Translations under genes and position numbers: made by a program
Virus record (IMG/VR): IMGVR_UViG_3300025671_000076
Location: 1 to 57,375 of that record
Strand: one strand, 5' to 3'
Origin: a virus
Lineage: Duplodnaviria; Caudoviricetes
DNA: 57,375 nucleotides
Notes under the pieces: generated by a model
Told to the model about the DNA's origin: nothing
Seen by the model: the letters and a program-made list of their open reading frames with translations, nothing else
Database searches by the model: none
Part shown: positions 2,610 through 57,362 of the stretch, in pieces
Position numbering within the stretch: the stretch's first letter is position 1
Layout: every line of letters starts with the position of its first letter

Positions 2610-2904
2610 GAACTTTTTTTAAAAATTTTTTAGTAAGATCAGATGATCCTGAGCTGGCACGCCAGCTGGGGTCTGGTACCAGCTGCTACGCTGCAGGGGG
2701 GTTGGGCTAAACGAGAAACGAGAAAACGAGAAACGAGGATTTGAAACGAGAAAACGGCCACCGAAGATTAATCCGGTGGCCGACAAAGAGGCTAAAAATA
2801 CTAAGTGAGGTTTCGCGTACAATCTCCTCATCCGGATCGGGAGCGCCAGCTTTTTCTCACAAAGACTTCTTGCAGTTACGCTTCTATCACAACGAGGATC
2901 CGTG

Positions 2905-3321
2905 TCAAGAACTATTTTTCACCAGCTGCCTCCTGAGCTCTGGCCAGGCCAGGGACGGTACGGGGTCCGGTGTTTGGTAAACGAGAACGAGGGAACGAGA
3001 AAACGAGGATGGGGACGAGGGATCCACGCCACCGGACACTCTGTAAAGTTTCAATAGCCTCTGCAAGAGGGTCTGATGCAGAATAAATATATTACCACCA
3101 TGACGTTGATATTCATAAGCCCAAGCCATTTGGAATTTGGACAGTATCGGAAACTTGTCTTCTGTTGACTTCAATTCAATCCAAAAAGACTTAGAATCTA
3201 TACACCCATGAACATCTGGAATACCTTGTACTGTTGAGCTTTCTATCCTTGTAAAATGTGCGTTTTTTATATGTTGTTTAACTCTTTGAAAGAGTAAAGA
3301 TTCGCGTTTTTTTAAAGCCAT
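2905..3321 (-). CDS. VRR-NUC / Holliday-junction-resolvase-like PD-(D/E)XK nuclease
   Basis: RIES...GIPDV...WIELK...S-x-FQ-x-AW motifs. Confidence 0.85.
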   Translation of the reverse strand: MALKKRESLLFQRVKQHIKNAHFTRIESSTVQGIPDVHGCIDSKSFWIELKSTEDKFPILSKFQMAWAYEYQRHGGNIFILHQTLLQRLLKLYRVSGGVDPSSPSSFSRSLVLVYQTPDPVPSLAWPELRRQLVKNSS

Positions 3322-3325
3322 TTAT

Positions 3326-3493
3326 TTAAGACAAGGTACACCCAAAAAAGACACCCTGAACAGTAAGATTTTCACGTAAAACATCACACACTTCAAACAA
3401 ATCCATTCCTTTTTCTACAGGAAGTTCAGATAATAATTCTTTTGTTACAGGAATTAAATAATACATTTCGTTTAAGAAAACAATGTAGTTCAT
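3326..3493 (-). CDS. Hypothetical protein (55 aa, MNYIVFLNEMYYLIPVTKE...)
   Basis: Manual translation; TAATG coupling to the upstream gene; fills the gap. Confidence 0.6.
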   Translation of the reverse strand: MNYIVFLNEMYYLIPVTKELLSELPVEKGMDLFEVCDVLRENLTVQGVFFGCTLS

Positions 3494-3816
3494 TAATGAA
3501 TTACTTTTATGGACTGTATGACTGATGTTGGAATTATAGTTGTGTTACCAATATTCTCAAAAGTTTCATCTGTTTTAGATTTGATGTAATCAGTAAATAT
3601 TCTAGTCACTCCACCTTTCTGAGATACAAGATAACCTTTAGATACACAAGTAGGTAAGTTAGATTTCAATAGAGCTTTAGTGTCAGACCACCCTGCATCA
3701 CCTTCGATATCAAACCAATGTATTTCTACAAAAGGATAGTCAGCAATATTTTTACCGAGCTTTTTAGTATTTAAAGGAATTGTTTTTCTATAAATTTTTG
3801 GTTTTCTTTTTGCCAT
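3493..3816 (-). CDS. Conserved marine phage hypothetical protein
   Basis: VEI-x-W-x-DI-x-GD-x-GW...SKG-x-L...IP pattern; GAGG SD. Confidence 0.8.
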   Translation of the reverse strand: MAKRKPKIYRKTIPLNTKKLGKNIADYPFVEIHWFDIEGDAGWSDTKALLKSNLPTCVSKGYLVSQKGGVTRIFTDYIKSKTDETFENIGNTTIIPTSVIQSIKVIH

Positions 3817-3907
3817 TTTTAACCTCTACCTTTACAGTTCCAGTTGATACAAGCAGATGTGAGTTGTGTATTTGATTGAACACAGTAACCCATTGTCCAC
3901 TATTCAC
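3788..3907 (-). CDS. Possible small hypothetical protein (GTG start)
   Basis: Open frame bridging the terS stop and the next gene. Confidence 0.3.
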   Translation of the reverse strand: MNSGQWVTVFNQIHNSHLLVSTGTVKVEVKNGKKKTKNL

Positions 3908-4397
3908 TAACTTCTTCTGGTGTAACGTTAATGATATTCTTCGCTTCACCGATTTTTGATTCGAGTTCTGCAAAGCGTTTCTCAAGTTGTTCACGAGACA
4001 TACCCTCCAAAGAATTGTTAGTAATTTCTTTTTTATCAACGTACATTCCTGCTAGTTGTCCTGAACGATACTCAGCATTAATTGCTGATGCGTATTGTTT
4101 TGATTTAGCAGCATCGTCACCGAATTTCTCGAATCTTTTAAATGACCTCAACGGATTAGCATATTTGTTTTTAGCTTCCGCAATTTTCTTTTCTAGATAT
4201 CTTACAACATGTGGATTTCTATTTGGATTAGTTAATTTAGATGCAATCGTATGTGGATCTTTAGCTACATAGCCTGCTCTCTTAGCAGCTTCTGTTTTGC
4301 TGATTAGTCCATATTCAGCAACATAAATATCTACAAACTTCCTTTGTTTAGGAGTCAAATCGTGCATCGTTTTCAACACGTTAGGTTTTCCAGCCAT
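3900..4397 (-). CDS. terS: Terminase small subunit
   Basis: LTPKQRKFV...TEAAKRAGY...ASKL HTH signature and C-terminal G-x-Y-x-DKKEI; start moved to ATG 4397 after GAGGA. Confidence 0.85.
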   Translation of the reverse strand: MAGKPNVLKTMHDLTPKQRKFVDIYVAEYGLISKTEAAKRAGYVAKDPHTIASKLTNPNRNPHVVRYLEKKIAEAKNKYANPLRSFKRFEKFGDDAAKSKQYASAINAEYRSGQLAGMYVDKKEITNNSLEGMSREQLEKRFAELESKIGEAKNIINVTPEEVSE

Positions 4398-4473
4398 GTT
4401 CTCAAATCCTCTATAAGATATTTTTAACTTAATTAAGACTGTATCCGAATTTAGGTATCTTGTCCACAAGAGT

Positions 4474-4702
4474 GACTAGTGTCACAAATGTCAGTGTATG
4501 TCACAAAATAAAAGTGTTTGTGACATCAAATAAGTAAGTAATATCAATGTAAATAGATTAAAAACAGTGTAGTGTCACAAGTGTCAGACATTCTGGGAGT
4601 ATGATTAGTGGTAAAGAGGTAAAAATATCTTATATAGAATCGTTGAAAATAAAAAATACAGTAAAATCAACAAAAAGTAGTGTCACAAAATGTGACACTA
4701 CT
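4474..4702. repeat. TGTCACA iteron cluster with 12-bp palindrome; candidate replication origin or pac region
   Basis: TGTCACA/TGTGACA at 4480, 4499, 4519, 4573, 4681 and 4691; AT-rich core 4526-4565; AGTAGTGTCACA-aaa-TGTGACACTACT at 4676-4702; non-coding. Confidence 0.75.
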
Positions 4703-4714
4703 CTAATTTAGGCC

Positions 4715-5053
4715 TCATTGTGTCGGATAATACCGTTGGCCGTCGACATAATGATAATAATTACCTGTATTGTCATAATAGGTAATGTCTTCTGGCTCTA
4801 TGTAATTTCTAGGTTTTACATGCCACAGTTTCATGCAGTTTAGAACGGTTCTAGATCTAGAACCGCCTAGCATATTCAATAAATCACTAACACTTAACTG
4901 TTTTAGCTCATACAAATTTAAACTAGGTAAATTAGCTTCTAATGTATCTAGTATCGCATTGGATTGAGCCATATCAAAAAAATGTTTAGCATCACGCAGA
5001 AACACTTTTTCGTGCTGAAGATCAACTTCAGACTTTTCTATTTTTTTGTTCAT
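4715..5053 (-). CDS. Hypothetical protein
   Basis: ORF; likely ATG start at 5053. Confidence 0.6.
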   Translation of the reverse strand: MNKKIEKSEVDLQHEKVFLRDAKHFFDMAQSNAILDTLEANLPSLNLYELKQLSVSDLLNMLGGSRSRTVLNCMKLWHVKPRNYIEPEDITYYDNTGNYYHYVDGQRYYPTQ

Positions 5054-5153
5054 ATAAATTATCTCTAATTTCACCAGATAAGTTGTCAATAATATTGTTT
5101 ATAGGACAATCTTTCATTGACTTGTTTGTTTAAACCTATAAAAATAGATATAA

Positions 5154-5969
5154 ATGATTATCAGAGATGAAAAACCAGCATTAAGAATACTATCACTAGG
5201 TGCAGGCGTTCAATCTAGCACTATGGCTTTGATGGCAGACGCTGGAGAGTTTGGAGTAAAACCTGATGCAGCAATCTTCGCTGATACGGGTTGGGAACCT
5301 AAACCAGTTCTAGATCATTTACACTATTTAAAATCAAAATTAAGTTACCCTGTATACATTACTAAAAAAGGTGACCTGGACAAAGATATCTTGAAAGCTT
5401 TGGCTCCTGGAGGCAATCAGTTCGCTTCAGCTCCGTTTTATACTTTGAATGAAAAAGGTAAAAAAGGAATGGGCCGAAGACAGTGTACAAGAGAATACAA
5501 AATAACGCCTATTGCTAAAAAAATTAGAGAAATTATGGGCTATAAACCTAGACAGAAAATGAAACCAACTCAGTGGGTTGAAGTGTGGATTGGTATATCT
5601 ATGGATGAAGTTCAACGTATGAAACCGTCTAGATTTTGGTGGCAAGAAAATAAATGGCCTTTGTTAGATAAAAAAATGACAAGAGACGATTGTCTAAAAT
5701 GGTATGAAGGTAAAGGATTTAACGTACCAGTTAAGTCAGCTTGTATTGGTTGTCCGTTTCATGATGATAGATTTTGGATTGACATGAGAGATAATAGACC
5801 TGATGAATTTGCAGAGGCGGTGTATTTCGATAAAGAGATGAGAAAACATAATCCTAAAATTAAAAATTTCGTACATAGATCCTGTGTGCCTTTAGATGAA
5901 GTTAAATTTAAAAATGATGATCAGGGTGATTTATTTAACCAAGAGTGCGAAGGTATGTGTGGACTGTAG
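5154..5969 (+). CDS. PAPS-reductase/DndC-like PP-loop protein with Cys motifs (putative Fe-S)
   Basis: LSLGAGVQSS PP-loop, FADTGWE, RQCT...KI-x-PI, IGIS-x-DE-x-x-R, KSACIGCPFH and terminal CEGMC. Confidence 0.85.
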   Translation: MIIRDEKPALRILSLGAGVQSSTMALMADAGEFGVKPDAAIFADTGWEPKPVLDHLHYLKSKLSYPVYITKKGDLDKDILKALAPGGNQFASAPFYTLNEKGKKGMGRRQCTREYKITPIAKKIREIMGYKPRQKMKPTQWVEVWIGISMDEVQRMKPSRFWWQENKWPLLDKKMTRDDCLKWYEGKGFNVPVKSACIGCPFHDDRFWIDMRDNRPDEFAEAVYFDKEMRKHNPKIKNFVHRSCVPLDEVKFKNDDQGDLFNQECEGMCGL

Positions 5970-6110
5970 ACTGGTGTCCTGTGGCCGTTGTTCCTTATCC
6001 TTTTTCTTTTCTTCAGTATAATCTTTACATCGATCCGTTTCATAGTCCTTACGTTTTCTTAACTTCTCTAAATATTTTTCGAACCGAAGTATATCGTCAA
6101 GTGTCATCAT
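5931..6110 (-). CDS. Possible small leaderless hypothetical protein (59 aa)
   Basis: ATG at 6110, 7 nt below TTTACC-N17-TATTCT. Confidence 0.4.
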   Translation of the reverse strand: MMTLDDILRFEKYLEKLRKRKDYETDRCKDYTEEKKKDKEQRPQDTSLQSTHTFALLVK

Positions 6111-6175
6111 ATTAATTAGAATACTTTCTTTTTATCTTACGGTAAAGGTGTTTAAAAAATTTTCTATCTAAGGAT

Positions 6176-6607
6176 TTAATCGGTGCAGCTAAATATAGCT
6201 TGCCGCAGTTCATTAATAGTTTTCGTATGCTTCCTGCGTTCATCTCTATCTTTAGCTTTTCTAAGTTTTTCATATTCCTTAGTGTATTTTATATTCAAAT
6301 TTTGCTTTTTAGTAAAGAAAATATTTCCTCTCTCAAGAGCTTCTAAATACTTCATTCTTACGTATTTCGGATCCATTTCGGCCTGGAAACATACAAATTT
6401 AAAATCCTCACTGTTATTACAGAACCAGTCGTGAGCTTCACCTTTCAATACCGACTCCGTTCTATTCTGATTCGTAATCATAACATCTTCTAAGGCCATT
6501 GATATGACTGCTCGCCATATTCTAATTTCTGGATCTGGTGTGTTTTCAATTAGCTTTTCAGCTATTACTAAACCCATAACTTTTAAAACTTTTGTTGATA
6601 TATTCAT
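6176..6607 (-). CDS. Conserved phage hypothetical protein (possible transcription regulator)
   Basis: PE-x-R-x-WRAVI...A-x-x-WF...DF-x-x-VC-x-x-A-x-MDP pattern; GGAG SD. Confidence 0.75.
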   Translation of the reverse strand: MNISTKVLKVMGLVIAEKLIENTPDPEIRIWRAVISMALEDVMITNQNRTESVLKGEAHDWFCNNSEDFKFVCFQAEMDPKYVRMKYLEALERGNIFFTKKQNLNIKYTKEYEKLRKAKDRDERRKHTKTINELRQAIFSCTD

Positions 6608-6658
6608 GTAGCTCCATATCGCTACGAATATGTCTTTTTAATTTCAATGTCAAGAATA

Positions 6659-6691
6659 AGGGGTAGCGCTAGTCTCCCATGCCCTACCCCT
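6659..6691 (-). terminator. GC-rich hairpin, putative terminator
   Basis: AGGGGTAG-x-GC/GC-x-CTACCCCT stem followed by UAUUCUU on the minus strand. Confidence 0.5.
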
Positions 6692-6726
6692 AAGAAAGGA
6701 GTTGATTAATGAAAACAAAATTTCAA

Positions 6727-6975
6727 TCAACGTTTTAATTTTAAATTAATTACATTGCCCTGTAAAGTCTTTTTATACCGTTTTTTGCGGTGTTCTTTCT
6801 TAATTTTTATAGCTAAATTAACAAATTCAAAGCCGTCAGGAGACATCCCAAACTGGTGTCCTACAAATAATAAACTCATCACAGAGGTCACTTTAGAATA
6901 TTCTACAGGATCTAGATTTTCTGCTAATATTTCTAATGCGTTATCCAGTTGATTTTTTGTGGTTCTTTTGCTCAT
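6727..6975 (-). CDS. Hypothetical protein
   Basis: ORF with GGAG SD in a tightly packed operon. Confidence 0.7.
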   Translation of the reverse strand: MSKRTTKNQLDNALEILAENLDPVEYSKVTSVMSLLFVGHQFGMSPDGFEFVNLAIKIKKEHRKKRYKKTLQGNVINLKLKR

Positions 6976-7318
6976 AAGATCTCTCCATTTTTTTATCGAT
7001 TAGCTTATCTATTACTTGTCTCTTCCTCACTCTTAAATATCTTCGCTTAACATAGTTCAATATTTTCTGTGCCATTTCATATTGTCCATGTCTGGTAATT
7101 GTATTTTTCCAACTTGGTCTAACTTTAGCTCGGTTAAAACAAAATGCGTCTCGTTGAGAAGTTTGTTCTAATCGAAGTTCAATACCTTTACGTTCATTTG
7201 GATACATTACCCAAGGTGTTTCAAAATAAGTATCTCGTATTTCTGGATGAACGTTAGTACGATCTAACCACTTCGCTATTCTTTTTGCGTTTTGTATTTT
7301 TAAAAATTTTTTAATCAT
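6941..7318 (-). CDS. Basic hypothetical protein
   Basis: ORF; probable start ATG 7318 overlapping the previous stop. Confidence 0.65.
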   Translation of the reverse strand: MIKKFLKIQNAKRIAKWLDRTNVHPEIRDTYFETPWVMYPNERKGIELRLEQTSQRDAFCFNRAKVRPSWKNTITRHGQYEMAQKILNYVKRRYLRVRKRQVIDKLIDKKMERSYEQKNHKKSTG

Positions 7319-7823
7319 AACGTTTTGCTCTCTCTCGTTTATGCCTTTTTTCTCTTCGATAATCAATATAATTTTGTTGTCTTTTTATAACATGATCATT
7401 GATATATACGAACCAAGGCATTTCTTGTTTAAAAAATCCTTCGTAAACTGAAATATAACCTTTTATTTCTATATAGGATAATTCATACGGACAACTATCT
7501 CCATTAGCATTTACAGGTGGACTAAATTTTTTAATCCATCGTTTTTCATAATGTTGTCTAATTCTAAAATCTTTATCTTTAACTTGCATGATTCTCATGT
7601 ATGCAAATATAGGACCTATACCTTTAGGTCTTTTACCACTTTTTAAAAAAGCTTTATAATAATGATCCAAAACTCTACATAAAGGATTTATACTTTCACC
7701 AATGTAAAGTAATTTATAGTCCTTATCGAATAAAAAATATAAGCCAGGCAAGTTATGTTTAACAAAATTTACCTGGCTTACAGTATCAGAAAATGGGATT
7801 AGTTTAGATTTATTTACTACCAT
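7311..7823 (-). CDS. GIY-YIG nuclease-like protein
   Basis: PGLYFLF...LLYIGES...RV-x-x-H...E-x-x-WI...P-x-x-N. Confidence 0.75.
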   Translation of the reverse strand: MVVNKSKLIPFSDTVSQVNFVKHNLPGLYFLFDKDYKLLYIGESINPLCRVLDHYYKAFLKSGKRPKGIGPIFAYMRIMQVKDKDFRIRQHYEKRWIKKFSPPVNANGDSCPYELSYIEIKGYISVYEGFFKQEMPWFVYINDHVIKRQQNYIDYRREKRHKRERAKRYD

Positions 7824-8013
7824 TTTTCTTTAGCAATTGAGAAATATATTTTTCAGCAGGGATACCTTTCTTCTTAGCTTGATATCCTGCATAATCTTTT
7901 ACCAGTTTTGAAATCATTCTCGCTGGGTTTCTATCTTTCTCATCGCATAAAGCAGTTAGTAAAGTATGCGTTTCTTTTTTTACTGCAACTGATTTCCATT
8001 TATTTATATCCAT
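7810..8013 (-). CDS. Ribbon-helix-helix-like DNA-binding protein
   Basis: KWKSVAV strand followed by two helices; 67 aa. Confidence 0.65.
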   Translation of the reverse strand: MDINKWKSVAVKKETHTLLTALCDEKDRNPARMISKLVKDYAGYQAKKKGIPAEKYISQLLKKNGSK

Positions 8014-8197
8014 TTTTCTTTAACTCCTCTTTCATTTGTAATTTATTTTTAATTCTTGGATTAGGTAAAACAATATAGAATCTTTCAAAGTAAGGATTGT
8101 TGTCACTAAAATCCCAACCTCTTTTTTTACTTAATCTATGATGCGCTGCGTATTGTCTTTCCTTCCAATCCATTTCGCTTATTTTAATTATGCTCAT
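8000..8197 (-). CDS. Hypothetical protein
   Basis: ORF with GGAG SD, coupled to its neighbours. Confidence 0.7.
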   Translation of the reverse strand: MSIIKISEMDWKERQYAAHHRLSKKRGWDFSDNNPYFERFYIVLPNPRIKNKLQMKEELKKNGYK

Positions 8198-8310
8198 AAA
8201 GTTACTCCAAATATAAATGCAATTAACATACCGATTAATCCTAAAAATAATTTAGGAAAAAACAATACAAACAAAACTATTAAACCTAAAGTTATAGAAT
8301 TACCTACCAT
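8194..8310 (-). CDS. 38-aa hydrophobic membrane peptide
   Basis: Manual translation MVGNSITLGLIVLFVLFFPKLFLGLIGMLIAFIFGVTL; ATGA coupling. Confidence 0.6.
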   Translation of the reverse strand: MVGNSITLGLIVLFVLFFPKLFLGLIGMLIAFIFGVTL

Positions 8311-8584
8311 GATAACTCTTTTCTAGTTCAATATGTACTTCGTGTGGTTCTGGTCTAGAAGTTAACTCATCCATAATTAATTGTTCAGCCATAATCCAAT
8401 TAACTGGGTAAGTAAAATTATTTGGACTACCTACTTTAATTGCAATTAATCTGTCTCTAGCATCGTGCCAAGTTTGATCATTTGGTGTAATAGGCTCACC
8501 ACTTGGTGTAGTTGCATATAATTTAGACAATATTTCATCTATTTCTTTTACAAAAGTAAATAACAATCGACTCTTACTATTCAT
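8300..8584 (-). CDS. Hypothetical protein
   Basis: First ORF after the leftward promoter; AGGA SD. Confidence 0.7.
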   Translation of the reverse strand: MNSKSRLLFTFVKEIDEILSKLYATTPSGEPITPNDQTWHDARDRLIAIKVGSPNNFTYPVNWIMAEQLIMDELTSRPEPHEVHIELEKSYHGR

Positions 8585-8633
8585 ATTTGTTTCCTGTATA
8601 ATTGTTAATATTATAATTAATATTCATCTTATC

Positions 8634-8661
8634 TATATAGATGATAAATAAGATAGGTCAA
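8634..8661 (-). promoter_or_regulatory. Sigma70-like promoter
   Basis: TTGACC-N16-TATATA; TATCTTA next to the -35. Confidence 0.55.
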
Positions 8662-8668
8662 GACATAA

Positions 8669-8881
8669 ATGAAGTTTATTTTAGTTATTCAAATTTGCAG
8701 TGCAATAGTTAGCTCTTGTGGCCAACCTATGTCTAGCCCACCTCAGTTTAATTCTTTTAAAGAATGTGGAATTTTTGGCTATGAGTTAAGTGCAGAATAT
8801 TTAAAAAAAATGGACTCAGAAAAAATAAATTCGGAGCTAATTTATACAAAATTTTGGTGTAAACCAGTTGAGTCTACATAA
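8669..8881 (+). CDS. Small Cys-containing secreted/membrane protein
   Basis: MKFILVIQICS...C...F-x-S-x-x-EC...KFWC pattern. Confidence 0.7.
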   Translation: MKFILVIQICSAIVSSCGQPMSSPPQFNSFKECGIFGYELSAEYLKKMDSEKINSELIYTKFWCKPVEST

Positions 8882-8930
8882 AATCCTTATTTTACAACAC
8901 TTTTTGCACCTCTTGACAAACTTGAAATAG

Positions 8931-8959
8931 TTGCATTCTACGCATATCTTTGATAAGAT
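8931..8959 (+). promoter_or_regulatory. Sigma70-like promoter giving a leaderless transcript
   Basis: TTGCAT-N17-TAAGAT, ATG 6 nt downstream, no SD. Confidence 0.55.
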
Positions 8960-8965
8960 ACTCTT

Positions 8966-9229
8966 ATGAAACTTTATCGTATCCAAGCAAACTATAAAAA
9001 TGTTTATTTGGATCACACGGTGGAAGCCGAAGACGATAAAGCTGCTTTAGAATCTTTTAGTGCGAGTTATGATTTAGGGCAGTTAACCGAAAAAGAAGGT
9101 GCAGGATTTCATAATCCCGATTTTCTTTTTCTAACCTTTGAGGAGGTCAAAAGAGATGCTACAAAAGTTAATCTCGGAGAAACTTCAGTTGGAATCCAAG
9201 TGGGCCAACCAGGCGTTAGAGCAGGGTAG
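8966..9229 (+). CDS. Hypothetical protein
   Basis: ORF directly after a promoter. Confidence 0.7.
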   Translation: MKLYRIQANYKNVYLDHTVEAEDDKAALESFSASYDLGQLTEKEGAGFHNPDFLFLTFEEVKRDATKVNLGETSVGIQVGQPGVRAG

Positions 9230-9341
9230 AGTTACTACCGATATGAAGTGGATCGATATAAAGATCAAAGATCTTAAAGTTAAGATCGCTCAGCAATCTG
9301 TAGAGGATGCTAAAAAAGGTCTTTTCGATATAGCTAGTTAA
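9156..9341 (+). CDS. Small coiled-coil hypothetical protein
   Basis: ATG 9156 after GAGGAGG; overlaps the upstream gene by 74 nt. Confidence 0.7.
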   Translation: MLQKLISEKLQLESKWANQALEQGRVTTDMKWIDIKIKDLKVKIAQQSVEDAKKGLFDIAS

Positions 9342-9367
9342 AAAAGACTAGCATTTTTATTTTTTTC
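9333..9367 (+). terminator. Putative intrinsic terminator
   Basis: GCTAGT/ACTAGC stem followed by a T-rich tract. Confidence 0.45.
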
Positions 9368-9388
9368 ATTGTATATCCTAGGGCATCT

Positions 9389-9607
9389 ATGTCTCTAAAA
9401 AAAGTTAAAGGTGTTCAAATATATTTATCTGTTAAAGATGTAAAAATTATAGAAAAATTACTTGCATCTAAAGCTATGATGTTAGGTAGTTTTAGTAAAT
9501 TAAAAAAAAGTGAAAGAGAGCTTTGGCATATTTTTGATGACATATGTCAGGATTTAAAACTTAACAATTATAAATTTGAAAAGAAAATAGATAAGTCTTT
9601 ACACTAA
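9389..9607 (+). CDS. Hypothetical protein
   Basis: ORF, TAATG-coupled to the next gene. Confidence 0.6.
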   Translation: MSLKKVKGVQIYLSVKDVKIIEKLLASKAMMLGSFSKLKKSERELWHIFDDICQDLKLNNYKFEKKIDKSLH

Positions 9608-9780
9608 TGGCTAAAACAATTGTTATAAATAATTATAAAAAATATTGGATTACAGATACAGCTCAAGGACATTTAATTAAAATATGTCATGGAGAGAATG
9701 ATAAAGTTACTGAAATAGATTTAAGATGGGATTCTAGAAAAAGAGATAAACAAAATAGAGTTATAAATACTAAACCTTAA
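9607..9780 (+). CDS. Hypothetical protein (57 aa, MAKTIVINNYKKYWITDT...)
   Basis: Manual translation; TAATG coupling. Confidence 0.6.
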   Translation: MAKTIVINNYKKYWITDTAQGHLIKICHGENDKVTEIDLRWDSRKRDKQNRVINTKP

Positions 9781-9961
9781 ACACCTGGGCATCATTGTAT
9801 TTGTACCAATGAATTCTACCATTTTTGTATTGTCTAACTTTATCTTCACAAGCATCACATATAAAAATATCTTTTTTTCTTGTTGGAATAAATGTAACAA
9901 ACTCACTACAATGAGGGCATTTACCTAATGCAAGATCGGTTATTTGAATCCTCTTAACCAT
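9770..9961 (-). CDS. Small zinc-ribbon protein
   Basis: CPHC...CDAC. Confidence 0.65.
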   Translation of the reverse strand: MVKRIQITDLALGKCPHCSEFVTFIPTRKKDIFICDACEDKVRQYKNGRIHWYKYNDAQVFKV

Positions 9962-10036
9962 GTAAGATATTTATTATTATTGATAAAGACATCACAACTA
10001 ATAAAATAAAAACCGTATTAAACCAATTATGTCTCA

Positions 10037-11911
10037 TTATGTTGCTTCTCCCCAGTTGTCTCCTAATGCTATATCAACTTTACTAGGTACTTTCAATGGC
10101 ACATCATCTAGACAATGTTCCATTTGATGTTGTATTTCTTTTATATCTTTATCTCCATTAACATTAAAACATAGTTCATCATGTATTTGTAGGAGTGGCC
10201 GGTGGCCGTTGTTATAACAGTCTATCATCGCTTGTTTAGTCTGATCTGCTGCTGATCCTTGGATAAGTCTATTAAGAGCTTTATAGGTCATAGCTCTTTT
10301 AATCATACCTCTATCATATTTAGATTCTGCTTCTTCTCTAGTCATGGATTTATGTATACCAAAAGTTTTAGGTTCCCAACGATCAAATCTACAGTGTCTG
10401 CCTCTAATCGTTACTACACAACCTTTCTTATCTGCAGTAGCCATACATCTATTCGATAACATTTTAACAAAAGGCACTTTCTGGTTATATGCGTTTAAGA
10501 TAGCTTTAGCCTGTTCTGTATCAATTCCTAGTTCAGCTGCTAATTTAGCTTTACCCATACCATAAAACATACCTAAATTAATTGTTTTAGCCTGTGATCT
10601 AGGTATATCAGCCATTTCTGCTACAACCTGGTGAAAGTCTGCATTGTCGTCATTATAGGCCTTTATAAGCTCATAGGAGCCCTCAAAACCACCATCTGTA
10701 GAAGATGCGTAGTGTACCACCAGTCTAGGCTCTTGTTGGCTATAATCGAAACTTCCCCACTGTTTTCCCTCATCAGGTAAAAATAATGACCTAATCTGCT
10801 TACCAAACTCCTTATTTCTAGCTGGAATCTGTTGTAAATTAGGATTACTCATAGATAGTCTGCCGGTGGCCGTCCCTCCTGAGTCTGATTTTAATTGATT
10901 AATTTCTGAATGTATTCTCCCTTTGTGCGTATATCTTAATATCGAATCAATAAAGGTAGAGTGAAACTTATTCATTTCTCTAGTTTCTCTAATGAGTTTA
11001 GCTATCGGGTGAGGACAGTTATGTAACCAGTTCGTAGTAAATGATGGGGCTTTAGTCTTTGCAGTTCTTTCATAAGGAACCTTTAATGCATCAAAAGCTT
11101 TAGCTACACTAGCTGCAGCCCATATCTCTACATCAACATTTGTAAGTTTTTTAATCTCAGCAAGCATTTTGTTTTCTTCTTTTACAAAATCCTTTTTAAG
11201 TTGATCTGCTTTTTCTAAATCAACTCGAATACCATGTTCTCTCATTTCAATTAAAATAGGAGTTAAAGTAGTTTCTAAATTAAATATGTTAGATAAGTTT
11301 TGTTGTTGTATTTCTGTTTTAAATCTATTCCAAAGTTTTAAAGTTAATTCAGCATCTTGCTCAGCATAAGGACCCACATAACCTGCAGGTAATCTCCACA
11401 TATCTTGTTTAGCATCTAGTCCCCATTCTTCTGCTTTTTCTTTTAGTTGCGCTTCTGATTTAACTTCTCCTAAATAATCAAATGACAATGCGTTTAATGA
11501 ATAACTGAATCTATCTTCATTAATTAATGCACCTGCAATCATGGTATCGTAAATTGTTCCTGTTGGTTTAATTCCTAACGATCTTGTCCAACCAATATCG
11601 TATGATGCGTTATGACAAACTTTATCTACACCATTTTCCATTAATTTTTTAAACCATTTGAGTGTAATATTTTTATCCATATTACCTCCAGCTTCATGTC
11701 CAATAGGAAAGTATCCTTTAAAACCATCTGCAGCTACTGCAATACCTACAATCTCTCCATCTTTAGTAGCCCATCCAGGACCTTTAGTTTTAATGTTAGG
11801 ATCTCTTGTTTCTAAGTCGACTGCTATAATAGATCTATCGGATAGATCTGGGTAACTTTCGGGTTTCTTCCAATCCGATTCCGCTTGATTGAATACTAAT
11901 TCTGTTGTCAT
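10037..11911 (-). CDS. polA: Family A DNA polymerase with 3'-5' exonuclease domain
   Basis: ExoI DLET, ExoII HNASYD, ExoIII YAEQDA; TGRLS, motif A DYSQQEPR, motif B KTINLGMFYG, motif C IHDEL. Confidence 0.97.
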   Translation of the reverse strand: MTTELVFNQAESDWKKPESYPDLSDRSIIAVDLETRDPNIKTKGPGWATKDGEIVGIAVAADGFKGYFPIGHEAGGNMDKNITLKWFKKLMENGVDKVCHNASYDIGWTRSLGIKPTGTIYDTMIAGALINEDRFSYSLNALSFDYLGEVKSEAQLKEKAEEWGLDAKQDMWRLPAGYVGPYAEQDAELTLKLWNRFKTEIQQQNLSNIFNLETTLTPILIEMREHGIRVDLEKADQLKKDFVKEENKMLAEIKKLTNVDVEIWAAASVAKAFDALKVPYERTAKTKAPSFTTNWLHNCPHPIAKLIRETREMNKFHSTFIDSILRYTHKGRIHSEINQLKSDSGGTATGRLSMSNPNLQQIPARNKEFGKQIRSLFLPDEGKQWGSFDYSQQEPRLVVHYASSTDGGFEGSYELIKAYNDDNADFHQVVAEMADIPRSQAKTINLGMFYGMGKAKLAAELGIDTEQAKAILNAYNQKVPFVKMLSNRCMATADKKGCVVTIRGRHCRFDRWEPKTFGIHKSMTREEAESKYDRGMIKRAMTYKALNRLIQGSAADQTKQAMIDCYNNGHRPLLQIHDELCFNVNGDKDIKEIQHQMEHCLDDVPLKVPSKVDIALGDNWGEAT

Positions 11912-12026
11912 AAGATTTTATATTTTTTAGGTTGCAGTAACAGTCGCCACAGTAATACTTTTTATCTTCAATTACAACTGCTAATTTGTGTTTACAAAAT
12001 TCACAATTATTTTTTCTTTTTTCCAT
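11835..12026 (-). CDS. Small zinc-finger protein
   Basis: CEFC...YCGDCY. Confidence 0.55.
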   Translation of the reverse strand: MEKRKNNCEFCKHKLAVVIEDKKYYCGDCYCNLKNIKSYDNRISIQSSGIGLEETRKLPRSIR

Positions 12027-12255
12027 CTTTCAATTTAAGTATTTCTAAATCGCAATAATGTTTAATCTTCTCAAGATCTTCTATTCCATTTTTACCTAAA
12101 TATCTACAAACATATTTTATAACATTTCCTTGAAAAAATGAGAGGTTATTTTTTGATATAAATTCATATGGTTGTATATGAAAGTTTTTGTAATGATTTC
12201 CGCCTATCTGTTTATTTTGGGGAAATGCTTCATCAAACATATCTTTATCACTCAT
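12007..12255 (-). CDS. DUF3310 (T7 gp1.7/SaV-like) protein
   Basis: QIGGNHY...IQP...F-x-QGNVIKYVCR...KNG-x-EDLEK-x-x-HY. Confidence 0.9.
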   Translation of the reverse strand: MSDKDMFDEAFPQNKQIGGNHYKNFHIQPYEFISKNNLSFFQGNVIKYVCRYLGKNGIEDLEKIKHYCDLEILKLKDGKKKK

Positions 12256-16153: not shown

Positions 16154-16170
16154 GTGTTACTCCTTATGTG

Positions 16171-16713: not shown

Positions 16714-16733
16714 AAATATGACCTCCTTTGTTG

Positions 16734-16766
16734 TTGACAATATAGTCATGGCTGATAGTATGTCAA
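16734..16766. promoter_or_regulatory. Symmetric overlapping divergent promoter pair
   Basis: TTGACA-N21-TGTCAA: plus strand TTGACA-N16-TAGTAT, minus strand TTGACA-N16-TATATT. Confidence 0.75.
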
Positions 16767-16771
16767 GCATT

Positions 16772-18923: not shown

Positions 18924-18935
18924 TCATTGTTTATA

Positions 18936-19112
18936 CTAAAAATGTTGAGAAAGTACAGCTAAAAGTATAGTTGCTAAACCACCTATAATCCATTTTTCTA
19001 TTCTTAATATTCTAGCTTCCATTTTCTCTATCTTTTCAAAAGTTTGTTTCTGCATAATTCGACAGATCTTCTCATGATATTCAATTCTGTCCATTGCAGT
19101 TTTTCTAGCCAT
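18936..19112 (-). CDS. Small coiled-coil protein with C-terminal TM segment
   Basis: HEKIC...RIEKWIIGG + hydrophobic tail; start ATG 19112. Confidence 0.7.
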   Translation of the reverse strand: MARKTAMDRIEYHEKICRIMQKQTFEKIEKMEARILRIEKWIIGGLATILLAVLSQHF

Positions 19113-51752: not shown

Positions 51753-52203
51753 TTTTATTTTTCTTTAATGCTGCAAAGTCCGCACCTGTAATTTTATTTG
51801 GTGGTGGAGCTGCCGCTGCAATCTTTTGTTGTTTAGGTGATAACTTAGTTTCGCCACCTGTAGATTTTTTATCTGTTTTAAATTTATTTTTAGCTGTTTC
51901 GTATCCAATACCAATTCCAGAACCAACTTTAATTGTTAGATCAGCTATTCTTCCAATTGGAGATCTTTTAAAAGCAGTTTTAAATATGTTTTTAGTTGCT
52001 GATTTTAATTTTTTTCTTCTATTTGTAAATGTATCTTCTTTTGCAGGTTTATTTGAAGATAGCGTCATTCTTCTATTAGTAAATTCATCAGTTGAAGATA
52101 ATTTTAATCTTCTATTTATAAATTCAGTACTTGGACTGTTTTTATTTACTGTTGTGTATAAATTTTTATAAAGGTTATCTAGCCCCAGTTTTTTTCCCGA
52201 CAT
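51736..52203 (-). CDS. Basic putative internal virion protein
   Basis: Internal FTNRR repeats; KSTGG...LSPKQ-x-KIA...KITGADF-x-x-L. Confidence 0.7.
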   Translation of the reverse strand: MSGKKLGLDNLYKNLYTTVNKNSPSTEFINRRLKLSSTDEFTNRRMTLSSNKPAKEDTFTNRRKKLKSATKNIFKTAFKRSPIGRIADLTIKVGSGIGIGYETAKNKFKTDKKSTGGETKLSPKQQKIAAAAPPPNKITGADFAALKKNKNVKKA

Positions 52204-54514
52204 TTGTTTTCTCCATTTTTTCTCGAGCAACTTCTAATCTCTTATCAGATTGCTCATCTTGTGTTTCTAATTTTAATTTATCAAAATCTAATTTCTCATC
52301 AAACTGATCCTGATTCTGTTCTATTTTCATTGTACCCTCTTGAGCACGTCTTTGTAAATCCATAGCTCTTAAGTCTAATTCTCTTTGTTTCAACATGATT
52401 ACAGGGTCGCTTTTTTGAGCATCCATCATAGTTTCGTTCTGTGCTAGCTCTGCAGTTATCTGTGCAATCCTTTTTGCTACTTCAGAATTGTACATAGATT
52501 GAAATGCTTGTGGATTTTGTTGTGCCATAGCCATTAAATTAGGATCTTGTTGCATCATAGCCATAACTTCAGCAGATGCTTTCATAGAAACGTGTTGAGA
52601 GATGTGTCCTTGTAGATTTGCATACACCATAGGGTTAATTTGCACCATTCTAGTTCTCATAAACGCAGAATGGGCTGCAATATGTGCGTCATGGTCTTGA
52701 TCTGGATATGCAGTCATCGGTAACATCTGTAAAGCTTCCATATTTTCAATTGCAGGGTCTTTTGGAAACGGTTTTTGCTCTGGTTTTAGGATTTGAGGTA
52801 TTTCTTTAGTGCCTAAAGCCTCATAAACACGTCTATAAGCTTCATGTAGGTTGTGAAGTTGTGGATTTGACTGCGCAATTTGTAATTGTGTTTGTGCTAA
52901 TGTCACTCTTTGCGACATTGAGAAGATATTTGGGTCTGCAACCGGTAAAATATCTACTCGGTCGTCAAAATCTACCACTTTAATGACTCTCTCAGCCCCG
53001 TAGACAGCGTATGGATACTCAGGTGGTAGGTATTCAGCTATAATTTGACCTAAAAGCTTAAATTCTTGCTTCATTGCATAGTAACAACGCTTGTGAATAG
53101 CGCTCATTACCCTAGAACCTCTCTCTAAAAGAGCAATTGTAGTCCCAACAGCTGCCGCTTGGTTACCATCACCGACTTGATTGTCAGCAATTGATGCAAA
53201 TCTTCTTCCTGCATCTACACAAAAACCTAAAAGATTAAATAAAGTTGTGCTTGGTTCTTTAAAAGGTAGTAATTGAAACTGATCTCTGATGTTTCCACCT
53301 GGTGCATCAACGTCTCTGAACTCTCCAGGTTGAATTGGTTGGTCATCATCTCTAATTCTCATGCCTCTAGACTTAAATCCAGCAGGTAAGTTTGATAATG
53401 TACCCGCATCAAGTAGCTGTCTTAGAGCAGTAGTTGCTGTTCGAGACAGGCCACCGATCATGTGAATTAAACCAAAACCATAAAATCCTAAACCAGGTAA
53501 GAATTTGTAATGTGAAAAATATTCTTTTCTAATAAATTTGTTATCACCTTCTCTGTAATTTCTATAAATAGATAAAATTTGTCTTGTACCTTCTTCAATA
53601 GTTACGACATAAGGTATTTTAATATTAATTTTGTCTTCGTCATTCTCTGCAATGTAGTCAGATAAGTCTAAATCCACATGCATTTCTAAAACATTGTATA
53701 TATAATCTTTTGATTCAACAGGTTTAATACCTTCTAGTTCATTGTACTTATCTTGAATTTTGTTTTCTTTTTTTTGAGGTTTCATTAGATCTACTTGTCT
53801 ATAAAAACCTGCTGCCATTTTCTTTAATAAATCATTTTCAGATTGTTTTAATACATGTGTAATTCTTGGTGCATCTTTTAAGTCGGTTGCATAATACGGT
53901 ACGACTAAATCTTCTGCAGGTATAAATTTAGATACTGCTCTTTCTAATACTGAATCGTAATATATTTTTTTAAATGCAGAACCTGCAAGTGGTAAATAAA
54001 ATAACAACTGATCAAACTCTGGAGTATACTCTTCCATCTTCTCCATGATTTGAAAGTTCATGAAATCTTTTACTCTTTGTGCTTGAGCTTCAGTTTGTTC
54101 GTTTTGTAATCCAACAATTTTAGTTTTTACTGGACCATCACTGGGTAATAATTCTTTGTAAGCTTGTGCTTGAAATTGTGTAACGGCTTCCGATAACAAA
54201 GGATGAGTAACATTACTTGCACCTTTGAAAGGTTGTGTAGTCGATTTATATTTAAACCCTAAAAGGTCTAAACCATTTCTGTACGTATCTTCCCAATCTT
54301 TTCTTGATTCTCTATCGCTATCATATTCAGAAATTAAATCTGAAGCTAATTGTGATAAAGCTTTGTCATCAATATCTTCTGCAATGTTTGCATAGAAGTC
54401 CTGTTCAGATTCTTCTGTTACTTCTTCTTCACCTTCTTCAGGTGGCAAAGTTACAACAGCTTCTTCTTCAACATCAACTTCTTCGTTGATTGGATTATCG
54501 GATTCAATAGCCAT
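52175..54514 (-). CDS. Portal protein
   Basis: SR-x-DWE...HPLLSEAV-x-QFQA...LPL-x-GS-x-FKK...GFYG-x-GL...RQL-x-DAGTL-x-NLP. Confidence 0.92.
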   Translation of the reverse strand: MAIESDNPINEEVDVEEEAVVTLPPEEGEEEVTEESEQDFYANIAEDIDDKALSQLASDLISEYDSDRESRKDWEDTYRNGLDLLGFKYKSTTQPFKGASNVTHPLLSEAVTQFQAQAYKELLPSDGPVKTKIVGLQNEQTEAQAQRVKDFMNFQIMEKMEEYTPEFDQLLFYLPLAGSAFKKIYYDSVLERAVSKFIPAEDLVVPYYATDLKDAPRITHVLKQSENDLLKKMAAGFYRQVDLMKPQKKENKIQDKYNELEGIKPVESKDYIYNVLEMHVDLDLSDYIAENDEDKINIKIPYVVTIEEGTRQILSIYRNYREGDNKFIRKEYFSHYKFLPGLGFYGFGLIHMIGGLSRTATTALRQLLDAGTLSNLPAGFKSRGMRIRDDDQPIQPGEFRDVDAPGGNIRDQFQLLPFKEPSTTLFNLLGFCVDAGRRFASIADNQVGDGNQAAAVGTTIALLERGSRVMSAIHKRCYYAMKQEFKLLGQIIAEYLPPEYPYAVYGAERVIKVVDFDDRVDILPVADPNIFSMSQRVTLAQTQLQIAQSNPQLHNLHEAYRRVYEALGTKEIPQILKPEQKPFPKDPAIENMEALQMLPMTAYPDQDHDAHIAAHSAFMRTRMVQINPMVYANLQGHISQHVSMKASAEVMAMMQQDPNLMAMAQQNPQAFQSMYNSEVAKRIAQITAELAQNETMMDAQKSDPVIMLKQRELDLRAMDLQRRAQEGTMKIEQNQDQFDEKLDFDKLKLETQDEQSDKRLEVAREKMEKTNVGKKTGAR

Positions 54515-54930
54515 TATGTAATTTTAGTTTTTTTATTCTTTCCCATTTTGCATTTAGCCATGACGTATTTTCCATTTTTAGCATACATCATTCCGCCAGC
54601 TTTAGCGCCACCCATGCCAAATTCAAAAGCATCATCAGTATCACCAAAATATCTTGTTTTTTGTCCGCCTGTTGTATTAGCAACAGGACTAGTTAAGAAA
54701 TTTTTGATTTTATCCATCATACCAATCTTGCCTTGTTTAACGCCTTTGCCACCCTTCATAATTGGGTCGTCGTATCTTTTTCTGTATATGTTGCTTAATG
54801 CACTTCCTCTGCCTTTATCAATATTGATTCCGGTATCTTTACCACCAAGCATTTTAGACGCTCCGTAAGCTGCAGCTCCAATGGCCGCTGCCTTACCAGC
54901 TTTCTTCAACATTTTTTTTAACTTAGCCAT
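54514..54930 (-). CDS. Basic Lys/Gly-rich putative core protein
   Basis: AKAGG and AKNGK motifs; AGGAG SD. Confidence 0.7.
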   Translation of the reverse strand: MAKLKKMLKKAGKAAAIGAAAYGASKMLGGKDTGINIDKGRGSALSNIYRKRYDDPIMKGGKGVKQGKIGMMDKIKNFLTSPVANTTGGQKTRYFGDTDDAFEFGMGGAKAGGMMYAKNGKYVMAKCKMGKNKKTKIT

Positions 54931-54983
54931 AATTGTCTCCTATAGGTTTATTACAGCAGTGTAAAGCATTTTATGCCAAAAAT

Positions 54984-57362
54984 CTATAATAGCGAAGTAA
55001 AAATGTTCCTCTGATCTACAAATCCACCTTCGTACATATAAGCTTTCATTGGTAACAAGAACTTTTTAAGTGTTGCACTATCTGCAATCAGAGTAGGCAC
55101 CATTTCATAGACATCAGGATTATTAGGCCCCAATTCTTTAATAATTAATTGACCAGAATTAGCTTCTGATTTTCTCATCTTCAATAAGTTTTCCGCTTCC
55201 TCTAAAGTATCTGCTGCAGCTAAATGATCTTCATAAATATACTCATCTCCAATTTTTTTATTGTAGTGCGCTTTACCTGCCTCTACCGATCTTCTATAGT
55301 TAGTAGAATCTTTTGATGAAATTACTTGAATAACTTTAAATGGTTTTTCTGGATTACTTTTAGGCATTGGGAACATTTCAAATTTAGCTCCATACTGTTT
55401 AGCTATTCTTTGTAAAGGTTCTACCATCAATGCAAACTTTTTAGTTTTTTCAAACTTACCATCCTTATTTTTAATTAAAGCCCTGCCATCCATTAAACCA
55501 TAATTAATCTCATCTCCAGTTTTACTAATGCTAGGCATCTTAACACCTTTGTTCATTGAACTTGGTACAATAGAGATTGCATTAATATCTCTTTCTGCCA
55601 TGGTACGTAATAAATTTTTAACTGCATAATCTGGCCAAGCTTTCGCTAAAGGTCCTGCAGTAGTTTCATCAACCATACCTTGATTCATTAGTTTACCCAT
55701 GCCTGATTTTTCTAATTGACCAATCTCATAATTTACTCTTGCAAGTTCTTGTTGTTGCTTTCTAGTCAATCCTGCAACTCCTCTACCAAGTTCTTGGTAA
55801 GGTGCAATCTTATCCATTAATTCTTGTCTTTGTTTTTTTAAAATATTTAATGGTGCATCTATGTTAAATGTATTTATTTTGTTTCTAAAATAACTATCTC
55901 TTGTACTTGCTTCAGCTGCAAACTGTGGTGAGTGTAAATCTGATTGTACTTCTGAAACTCTAATATGTCTTTTACCTGGACCTAATTTAGGATTCGGTAA
56001 ATCATCGTATCGAATAAATCCAATCTCATTATCAATGTAATGAGGTGAGTCTAGTTCTTTAAATTGTCCGCTTGTTGTATTTGGAACTCTTTTTGAATAA
56101 TACACAACATCTTCAGTAAAGTTTTCTCCTGCATCTAGCTTGTAATTATAACCCGAACCTGTTTTATATTCTGGATAAAAAGTATCTTCTTTAGATCTTC
56201 TTAATTTAAATCCTTCAGGTTTAGGAATTCGTTTACTGTAGTTATTATAGTTCCCTGTAAGTCTATTAAATTTAACTAATAGATCTGCAAACGGTTTAGG
56301 GTCATTTGCTCCTGCACCTAATTGTTGTAGATTTTTTTGTACTTTTTGAATCACAGTTGTATTAAGAGGATTTCTTTGTCCGAACATAATTGTAGCAATT
56401 GAATCTAAAGTATCATTAATGTAATTGCCTTCAGGAATTCCATCCATTCCAGAAGCTCTTACTGCATCATTAACCTCTTTTTTAAAAGTTACCATTTCTC
56501 CATCAGGATTGCCTCTAACACCTAAACGAATTGTTTTTAAATCATTTATTGGAGAGTTTCTAACCATCGTTAGTAAAGTATCTCTATCGATAGGTATATT
56601 GTTATCTTTAGCTGCTTTTAAAAAACCACCAGTTGGTTCCATAACTTCTTCATACTTTTGTCTTCCTGGTTTTTGTCCTGGAACCTCTCTTACCGGTTTA
56701 GGTTTTAATGTTTTCTTTAATGTAACGATATTTAATTCTTCTAACTCATCAGGTGCTACTCTACGAGAGACCCCTGTTAACGGACCAGTATTAACTCTTA
56801 ACTGAGGATCCATTCCTTTAGACAACCAACTAATCCATTCATCTGCAGGTGCTTTATCAAATGGTGCTTCCATGATTCTATCGTAAGTCGATGAACCTAC
56901 AATTGGATTTAAATTCATTCCTGTTCTTGTAGAAGAACTATAACCTTTACCTTGTGTGAAAGGTATATTAATGACTTCACCAAATTTTGATTTAGTTAAT
57001 GCAGGCACTGGAGTTGTAGTAATTAACTCTTTGGATTGTCCGGTGGCCGTTGGTATGTTACCTATCTCATTTGGTTTAGTTGATGAGACAGGAATGTTTT
57101 CTACTCTTGATTTAGAAGGTAATGAAAACTTTGTGTATACTTCTTTTTCTTTTGGTCTTTTTAAAAATTGTCTAACTCCAGGTATTCGTCTTGCTAGAAT
57201 GCCTGTTCCTACTATACTAGCACCGAGTGCTGCTAACCCGCCAATCGACGACGGCTCCGTGTCATCAACAATGATAGACGAATCCTGTTTGACCAGTGGC
57301 GTTGAGCCTCGTTTAATTTGACTAACAAAAGATTCAAACGGATCATTGAATGGGTCGGCCAT
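54984..57362 (-). CDS. Large putative internal virion protein with E-x-QSD motif
   Basis: 792 aa; HY...GFIRYDD...SEVQSDLH...W-x-x-x-A-x-K; terminal MYEGGFV. Confidence 0.6.
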   Translation of the reverse strand: MADPFNDPFESFVSQIKRGSTPLVKQDSSIIVDDTEPSSIGGLAALGASIVGTGILARRIPGVRQFLKRPKEKEVYTKFSLPSKSRVENIPVSSTKPNEIGNIPTATGQSKELITTTPVPALTKSKFGEVINIPFTQGKGYSSSTRTGMNLNPIVGSSTYDRIMEAPFDKAPADEWISWLSKGMDPQLRVNTGPLTGVSRRVAPDELEELNIVTLKKTLKPKPVREVPGQKPGRQKYEEVMEPTGGFLKAAKDNNIPIDRDTLLTMVRNSPINDLKTIRLGVRGNPDGEMVTFKKEVNDAVRASGMDGIPEGNYINDTLDSIATIMFGQRNPLNTTVIQKVQKNLQQLGAGANDPKPFADLLVKFNRLTGNYNNYSKRIPKPEGFKLRRSKEDTFYPEYKTGSGYNYKLDAGENFTEDVVYYSKRVPNTTSGQFKELDSPHYIDNEIGFIRYDDLPNPKLGPGKRHIRVSEVQSDLHSPQFAAEASTRDSYFRNKINTFNIDAPLNILKKQRQELMDKIAPYQELGRGVAGLTRKQQQELARVNYEIGQLEKSGMGKLMNQGMVDETTAGPLAKAWPDYAVKNLLRTMAERDINAISIVPSSMNKGVKMPSISKTGDEINYGLMDGRALIKNKDGKFEKTKKFALMVEPLQRIAKQYGAKFEMFPMPKSNPEKPFKVIQVISSKDSTNYRRSVEAGKAHYNKKIGDEYIYEDHLAAADTLEEAENLLKMRKSEANSGQLIIKELGPNNPDVYEMVPTLIADSATLKKFLLPMKAYMYEGGFVDQRNIFTSLL

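Follow-up and report, generated by a model that had tools for sequence, protein, structure and literature searches.

Localized single-strand interruptions in virion DNA have been described for phage tf, phiKMV-like phages and T5, where they fall at 4-14 sites per genome, inside genes; in tf the consensus is TACTRTGMC, 9 bases with one M position, and its 14 sites all lie on one strand, near-consensus sequences being few and the sites of its relatives occupying similar positions in differing numbers (PMC3517423). Other words serve the start of DNA synthesis: AEP primase-polymerases can need words in the template, NrS-1 using TTTGGTTA and GTGG/GTGA (PMC8718748), and in RSF1010 the inverted repeats ssiA and ssiB of oriV are where RepB' starts (PMC8567376). 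Here we describe a 12-base word in the tailed-phage record IMGVR_UViG_3300025671_000076 (Duplodnaviria; Caudoviricetes), which was analysed entire as a single contig of 57,375 bases (hereafter the window) and represents an incomplete genome. Judged from its sequence, the word is a real strand-specific signal embedded in the genes of this phage and its relatives, and we weigh a site for a strand-specific nickase against other ways of reading it.

On the minus strand, the sense strand of nearly all long open reading frames (ORFs) of the window, the word is GMCACMGGMCAM (aligned, G-M-C-A-C-M-G-G-M-C-A-M), usually with AACG on its 5' side; it is phased as about two and a half to three tandem heptamers, AACAACG-GCCACCG-GACAAYC, in DNA with a GC content of 28-40 %. 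Exact 12-mers number seven on the minus strand and one on the plus strand (Table 1). Allowing one mismatch adds two minus-strand matches, both tandem neighbours of exact copies, and three plus-strand matches that look unrelated; there are almost no near-misses, and the word is therefore sharply defined. The initial annotation of this DNA had described the signal in its plus-strand form, as GC-rich tandem heptamers of the CCGKTGK type inside AT-rich genes, and the polarity that it reported holds: CCGKTGK occurs 15 times on the plus strand versus 2 on the minus strand, the 12-mer in that form 7 times versus 1, and the 8-mer CCKGTGKC 11 times versus 1. Seven of the ten places that it cited (5971, 10192, 14811, about 19241-19275, 27675, 40238 and 57033) carry the exact 12-mer, and an inverted repeat does lie at 2755-2782, but 10863 proved to hold the 8-mer core only and 4733 a weak look-alike.

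The expected number of copies was obtained from 500 codon-preserving shuffles of 59 curated genes (15,885 codons), in which the proteins and the codon usage of each gene were kept. For all four patterns counted the observed value exceeded the shuffled ones, and none of the 500 shuffles reached it: 15 against 6.19 ± 1.68 for CCGKTGK, 11 against 3.49 ± 1.13 for the 8-mer core, 7 against 1.10 ± 0.32 for the 12-mer, and 7 against 2.19 ± 0.44 for two adjacent heptamers with at most one mismatch. The same outcome was obtained with a cruder automatic gene list. As the shuffled genes themselves give CCGKTGK counts of 6.2 versus 2.4 on the two strands, the raw strand bias is partly a coding bias; the excess is not so explained. 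A regular spacing of ∼4.2 kb, suggested by apparent multiples among the gaps between sense-strand copies (16795, 12563, 8420, 4444, 4619 and 4221 bases), was rejected as coincidence because the gaps in relatives (13079, 5295, 5947, 4813, 13605, 14452 and 15891 bases) do not fit it.

By tblastn, 39 of the 59 window proteins match Pelagibacter phage HTVC023P with their order kept, on which basis the window is assigned as the incomplete genome of an HTVC023P-type phage; identity is 89 % for the capsid, 64 % for the portal, 57 % for the family-A DNA polymerase (polA) and 30 % for the primase. HTVC023P itself holds no copy of the word on either strand of its 60,878 bases, and a search there for a comparable word returned as over-represented strand-specific words Gly-repeat codons only. 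The stretch occurs in 20 of the 21 sequencing runs listed (freshwater or marsh metagenomes, Logan contigs); over 1-20000, the contigs of three RNA runs and one DNA run, which carry no read-end information, showed no breaks at the sites of the word.

Relatives were collected by four protein-seeded scans of viral contigs, which yielded 255 loci totalling 1,734,378 bases. Within these the strict 12-mer occurs 124 times in the sense of the genes and twice antisense to them, each time at the homologue of the single plus-strand copy of the window (3028-3039). A single strand carries 7 of the 8 exact copies of the window and, in relatives, 124 of 126; one conserved inverted locus accounts for the rest. 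Five long relatives (41-56 kb) carry 2-4 copies per record, 13 of 13 on the sense strand. Since metagenome loci are not independent, the ratio of 124 to 2 owes something to common ancestry in addition to selection; a fairer measure is how many distinct contexts there are, which in the polA set (69 loci) alone is 18. A further scan with a 16-base form of the word found at least 116 stretches in viral contigs. Among the matches listed, the 49 loci below 42 % GC all lie, by our own reading of their flanks, in contexts of this lineage, namely polA, a gene for a 792-aa protein or the intergenic region near the small terminase gene (terS); tblastx showed synteny with the window for nine of the nine intergenic examples tested, and the reading of contexts was confined to these low-GC loci, leaving aside the 67 listed of higher GC.

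Individual copies differ in how firmly they are held. In the 792-aa gene the codons ACG GCC AC(C/T) GG(A/C) CAA were found in 15 of 15 aligned relatives (protein identity 45-81 %), the linker around them being otherwise variable and rich in indels; ACT in five of these sequences indicates that the sixth position of the word tolerates T. The primase site is present in all 12 polA-set loci, the window aside, that show this context, ten encoding DTGQ and two DTGH (CAA to CAC), where the HTVC023P primase has ENNTP. At the polA site (47-48 unique sequences, down to 75 % identity) GGC is found in 46 of 47, and CAC and CCA in 47 of 47, whilst the third codon is CGG in 28 and AGG in 19 and never the common AGA. 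Among 1861 windows of 12 bases in polA this one ranks fourth lowest in entropy, and the three lower ones use common codons. The position is conserved only within the clade of at least 75 % polA identity: HTVC023P has GGT CAT TTA CCT (GHLP) and a distant motif-bearing lineage (polA 63-65 %) has GGT TAT AAA CC(C/A). Of 81 relatives aligned over the 292-aa gene, 12 have GAC ACC GGA CAA, in flanks that differ, and the HTVC023P protein has DSDKK at this place. The ORFs of two relatives (L021 and L036) homologous to the 1072-aa gene contain related tandem copies. The C-terminus of the 1072-aa protein (19105-19300, minus strand) is Q-rich, with a loose 7-residue repeat (ATGQMPQ-like) that is similar in the L021 and L036 homologues; seven residues correspond to 21 bases, or three DNA heptamers. 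Least secure is the copy at 40241-40252, which is probably recent, accidental or due to chance, since the 229-aa gene has motif codons in only 6 of 81 aligned sequences, that of the window included, the others encoding xTGQPS with common codons (GCA ACT GGA CAA in HTVC023P).

The copy at 5974-5985 is effectively intergenic and lies at a convergent junction with a plus-strand PAPS-reductase-like gene. The corresponding position, between the homologue of the gene at 6176-6607 and terS, is occupied in several close sub-lineages, where there are often two overlapping units, as well as in the most distant relatives found; it is empty in L003 and L011. Upstream of terS, the copies of relatives fall between genes or in tiny, doubtful ORFs. 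In distant relatives a promoter-like TATATA box lies 15-93 bases downstream of the word, with lineage-specific iterons and terS beyond it in that order; this range rules out a fixed distance between word and promoter. Across the lineage, positions are conserved within sub-lineages (primase gene, polA, 792-aa gene and this intergenic region) and copies are gained and lost between them, at 2-8 per genome, with some positions persisting.

The codons that spell the word are rare in this phage, as the initial annotation had observed: GCC makes up 5.0 % of Ala codons, ACG 4.6 % and ACC 5.6 % of Thr codons, GGC 8.6 % of Gly codons, and CGG 0.6 % and AGG 4.8 % of Arg codons. Nonetheless, all five [AD]TG[QH] peptides of the proteome are written with motif codons, and synonymous positions, whose conservation in relatives the initial annotation had proposed to check, are invariant in polA and the 792-aa gene. 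One could suppose that the word has no function as nucleic acid and is a by-product of a recurring peptide (xTGQx) or of codon usage, given that five of the six in-gene copies encode [AD]TGQ in one shared frame and that the 229-aa protein keeps ATGQ without motif codons. The polA copy, however, is in another frame, the copy at 5974-5985 and those near terS in relatives are intergenic, rare codons are fixed at synonymous sites, the peptide-keeping shuffle gives 1.1 copies against 7, and HTVC023P is without the peptides at three of four places. Such an explanation is hardly credible as a general account; it is refuted for most copies and likely for 40241-40252 only. With rare codons fixed synonymously, a second frame used in polA, intergenic copies, and no word in HTVC023P, the comparisons indicate that selection acts on the nucleotides and not on the peptide, and that purifying selection keeps a lineage-specific cis-acting word in coding sequence and in one intergenic region. 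The choice between A and C at its variable positions suits protein contacts rather than base pairing.

Table 1. Copies of the word, associated repeats and genes referred to in the text, with positions in the window
Feature	Position	Strand	Context or basis
GCCACCGGACAA after AACG	57036-57047	minus	792-aa gene, peptide TATGQ, codon about 110
GCCACAGGACAA	40241-40252	minus	229-aa gene, over conserved ATGQ peptide
GACACCGGACAA plus one upstream heptamer unit	27678-27696 (exact copy 27678-27689)	minus	292-aa gene, hypervariable stretch after P(L/M)WK
GCCACAGGACAA plus second unit 14 bases on	19244-19269 (exact copy 19258-19269)	minus	Q-rich C-terminus of 1072-aa gene
GACACCGGCCAA	14814-14825	minus	AEP-type primase gene, peptide DTGQ, codon about 190
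GCCACCGGCCAC	10195-10206	minus	polA, other frame, GGC CAC CGG CCA = GHRP, 160 bases before stop
GCCACAGGACAC	5974-5985	minus	Effectively intergenic, downstream of gene 6176-6607
GCCACCGGACAC, inverted exact copy	3028-3039	plus	Directly after conserved end of VRR-NUC gene
GCCACCGG, 8-mer core	10863-10870	minus	polA, T-x-TGRLS peptide; not counted as a full site
AACGAG heptamer arrays (two)	2710-2750, 2980-3007	plus	
Further AACGAG arrays	329-364, 878-890, 973-985, 1075-1086	plus	
Terminator-like hairpin, stem GGCCACCG / CGGTGGCC, then TTTTCTCGTT	2755-2782	minus	Intrinsic-terminator scoring
VRR-NUC protein	about 3070-3321		Family scan
Small terminase (terS)	3900-4469		Family scan
ORF with GIY-YIG nuclease domain, 170 aa	7311-7823	minus	Pfam, E 5.8e-6
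Family-A DNA polymerase (polA)	10037-11911	minus	Family scan
Helicase	12248-13855		Family scan
AEP-type primase	13797-15353	minus	PF22548, E 1.6e-12
2OG-Fe(II) oxygenase-like genes (four)	29026-29595, 34259-34828, 41327-41923, 42427-43053	minus	Family scan
Portal	52175-54514		Family scan

The plus-strand copy at 3028-3039 is in heptamer register with an AACGAG array. An inverted CACCGG core occupies the same place in L003/L072, L011 and L021 and in four of the four distant relatives examined, and is followed by CTCGTT (= AACGAG) arrays; in the window AACGAG occurs 22 times on the plus strand versus 7 on the minus strand. The arrays are conserved in 14 of the 69 polA-set loci (those that reach the region) and in distant relatives, down to the most distant found. 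The initial annotation had the signal change orientation around the terS/iteron locus, with a minus-strand majority left of about 3.05 kb. What remains of this is the one inverted exact copy with its plus-strand arrays; a genome-wide switch was not found, and positions 1-3050 hold two plus-strand matches to CCGKTGK and one on the minus strand. The relative L072 has, at its positions 3659-5999, ∼2.3 kb between what are the two ends of the window (1 and 57375), a segment that is absent from the contig and sits between the small-ORF region and the 792-aa gene; a 488-aa ORF within it occupies the place of the HTVC023P large terminase. Arrays and inverted copy thus form a local domain of opposite orientation, a few kb long, between VRR-NUC and the missing large terminase, and not a replichore-like switch, since only ∼2.3 kb is lacking between the ends and the next copy past the locus (57036-57047) is back in the usual orientation.

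Likewise, the element at 2755-2782, which had been taken for an inverted repeat of the heptamer, is indeed an inverted repeat but scores as a terminator-like hairpin. A hairpin at this position is also present in the distant relatives L310 and L283, and in L262 the stem is changed on both arms and still pairs; by our own reading it would be a structural hairpin, not a pair of motifs. The six AAACGAG arrays sit in gaps between small ORFs, and every one adjoins a GC-rich segment that contains words of the CCAGCTGG or CCTGAGCT type; on the sense strand the arrays read CTCGTTT, often after a hairpin. Between the TATATA box and terS, the relatives L288, L310, L346, L338 and L021 carry iterons (GGTGTCCCT, GGTGTATCT and TCTGACA/TGTGACAC); these lineage-specific repeats, candidates for a pac or operator function, vary where the 12-mer is constant. 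A sigma-70-like promoter at 8631-8661 on the minus strand of the window (TTGACC, 16 bases, TATATA) holds the palindrome ATCTATATAGAT, and the same TATATAGAT box is found downstream of the word in the terS-proximal intergenic region of the distant relatives L288, L310, L338 and L021.

Family scans (PHROGs/Pfam) covered 59 window ORFs and identified, in addition to the genes of Table 1, an exonuclease, the major head protein, tail proteins and an endolysin; in the structural region there are also ferrochelatase-like and glycosyltransferase / radical-SAM-like genes, as in HTVC023P. No large terminase was found in the window. The 792-aa protein is unlike the HTVC023P large terminase and returned no PHROGs, Pfam, PDB-sequence or named ESM-Atlas match. 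The PAPS-reductase-like gene (phrog_424, 5154-5969) is on the strand opposite to most genes and present in 4 of the 69 polA loci, and looks like an insertion between the intergenic copy of the word and the terS region. Rfam gave no match over the whole window at the gathering score and none in 1-6300 at E ≤ 1, and there were no tRNAs. Summed contig depth in three metatranscriptome runs weakly indicates (from contigs only) a maximum over 15342-16675, corresponding to the ORFs 15353-16153 and 16171-16851 (Pam3 gp34/gp33-like), with which the replication block opens.

Among phenomena already described, the localized nick sites of tf, phiKMV-like phages and T5 come closest, and for this reason we tentatively read the word as the recognition site of a strand-specific nickase, to which we assign a probability of about 0.3. 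The word would be recognized by a protein that reads one DNA strand, a phage-encoded site-specific nickase would target it, and virion DNA would then carry localized single-strand interruptions of the kind described for T5, phiKMV-like phages and tf. For the wider class of sites for a strand-specific DNA enzyme, whether for a nick or for a primer start, we consider the odds about even. As with the published sites (PMC3517423), the word is a short exact consensus with A/C degeneracy and few near-consensus sequences, its 2-8 copies per genome compare with 4-14 there, and, as in tf, positions are shared among relatives (polA, primase and 792-aa genes) with differing copy numbers. It differs from them in being unrelated to TACTRTGMC, CGACNNNNNCCTACTCCGG or RGCGCRGG and in belonging to phages of the HTVC023P type.

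Several observations weigh against a nickase site. One conserved copy is on the opposite strand, whereas tf sites are all on one strand, and nick sites are not reported to have overlapping tandem units or a link with heptamer arrays. Nearly all genes lie on one strand and the DNA strand is therefore inseparable from the transcript; the same facts fit a signal in RNA or on the non-template strand. Furthermore, among the window nucleases compared, no nickase candidate was found to co-vary cleanly with the word. The GIY-YIG ORF matches 33 of the 69 polA loci (the close clade, 45-83 % identity), but a search at E ≤ 1e-3 did not recover it from L288 or L304, which among more distant relatives with the word are the two whose loci span polA to the 6176-6607 homologue, nor was it detected in HTVC023P. 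VRR-NUC, in turn, occurs in the motif-less HTVC023P too, as do terS and the primase. The PAPS-reductase-like gene was discarded as a co-occurring enzyme for its presence in only 4 of 69 loci.

The word may alternatively be a signal for initiation or priming, at which the AEP-type primase or another initiator would start DNA synthesis on one template strand, with the inverted copy beside the arrays forming an origin with two opposed starts, like ssiA/ssiB of RSF1010. The window does encode a primase of the AEP type (PF22548), and the word is strand-specific; the complement of every unit holds KTG, often GTG and otherwise TTG, reminiscent of the template words of NrS-1 (PMC8718748), and the forward and inverted copies bracket the terS-VRR-NUC segment beside repeat arrays. 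Yet 2-4 copies per genome would not suffice for lagging-strand priming and exceed what an origin requires, the gain and loss of positions between close relatives would be unusual for origins, and HTVC023P has a homologous primase (30 % identity) but no comparable word. Moreover, ssi signals are 40-base hairpins, whereas no supported hairpin surrounds the word (consensus fold of nine intergenic copies, -5.12 kcal/mol; covariation term +0.04; compensatory change at 1 of 10 pairs), and known AEP template words (NrS-1, pRN1) have 3-8 bases, shorter than this one, which is dispersed inside genes. We consider priming unlikely, and are equally doubtful of a transcription-coupled signal, read on the non-template strand or in the mRNA for pausing, antitermination, termination or processing. 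The latter would be in keeping with every dispersed copy being sense to its local transcription unit, with several copies lying near operon ends or, close to terS, just upstream of the TATATA promoter-like box, and with the convergent gene junction at 5974-5985. The ops element is a 12-base word read on the non-template strand in RfaH-type systems, and resembles ours in its length of about 12 bases, sense-strand dispersed copies and low copy number. The present word is nevertheless unrelated to it in sequence and lies deep in ORFs (polA, primase and structural genes) and not in operon leaders; copies in mid-primase gene and 320 bases into the 792-aa gene match no operon boundary, and the gap to the promoter-like box is anything from 15 to 93 bases. 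Relative to the genes around it the conserved inverted copy is antisense, a choice of A or C at four positions is not what base pairing would tolerate, no NusG-like/KOW or RNA polymerase family turned up in the scans of 59 ORFs, and Rfam was silent. Two related ideas were set aside: a promoter for a T7-like phage RNA polymerase, given the lack of such a family in the 59 ORFs and the position of five of the seven sense copies well inside long ORFs, and RNA-RNA pairing between inverted and sense copies, put low because the variable positions are A/C and not wobble-compatible.

Quite unlikely, in our judgement, is a double-stranded binding site for a regulator or the small terminase, with its main site in the terS control or packaging region, the dispersed copies as secondary sites and the AACGAG-type arrays bound by the same protein. 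It would account for the two most widespread positions, the intergenic one upstream of terS and the inverted one after VRR-NUC, both being beside arrays, for the heptamer register of the inverted copy with its array, and for extra tandem units occurring mostly in intergenic copies. On the other hand, the arrays between promoter and terS differ by lineage and the word is constant, so that they probably have different readers; repeats spaced by 7 bases place successive units on different faces of the duplex; and such secondary sites would not need a strict single orientation. As to the Chi- or KOPS-like polarity signal that the initial annotation had suggested, which a host translocase or nuclease would read and the direction of replication or packaging would orient, the strong strand bias, the G/T-rich plus-strand form and the inverted domain at the terS/array locus speak for it, as does the likeness of CCGGTGG to the E. 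coli Chi word. The suggestion is not supported, the word being exact over 12-16 bases and not 5-8, far rarer (2-4 copies in relatives, with near-misses nearly absent) and specific to this lineage (49 of 49 low-GC loci among the listed 16-base matches), without a replichore-like switch and missing from HTVC023P, a SAR11 phage of the same type; we hold it to be very improbable.

Beyond the nickase reading, the word, its inverted partner and the AACGAG-family arrays may act together as a single system that gives genome replication or packaging its polarity in this branch of the HTVC023P-type phages, a speculative and rather unlikely proposal; such a system could, for example, consist of AEP primase start sites written into the coding sequence of replication and structural genes. 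No description of a genome-wide strand-specific initiation code inside the genes of tailed phages was found in the literature searched. A literature search on GGCCACCGG in phages gave nothing relevant, and a word search of the main texts of papers on HTVC023P-type phages found no mention of such a word, nicks, repeats or promoters. A word that overrides codon choice in a polymerase, a primase and a large gene of the virion region marks a specific protein-DNA or protein-RNA interaction, and it provides a simple marker for the sub-lineage in metagenomes. If the nicks are real, an ecologically dominant aquatic lineage would join T5, phiKMV and LUZ24-like phages in showing programmed nicking, a phenomenon that is still unexplained.

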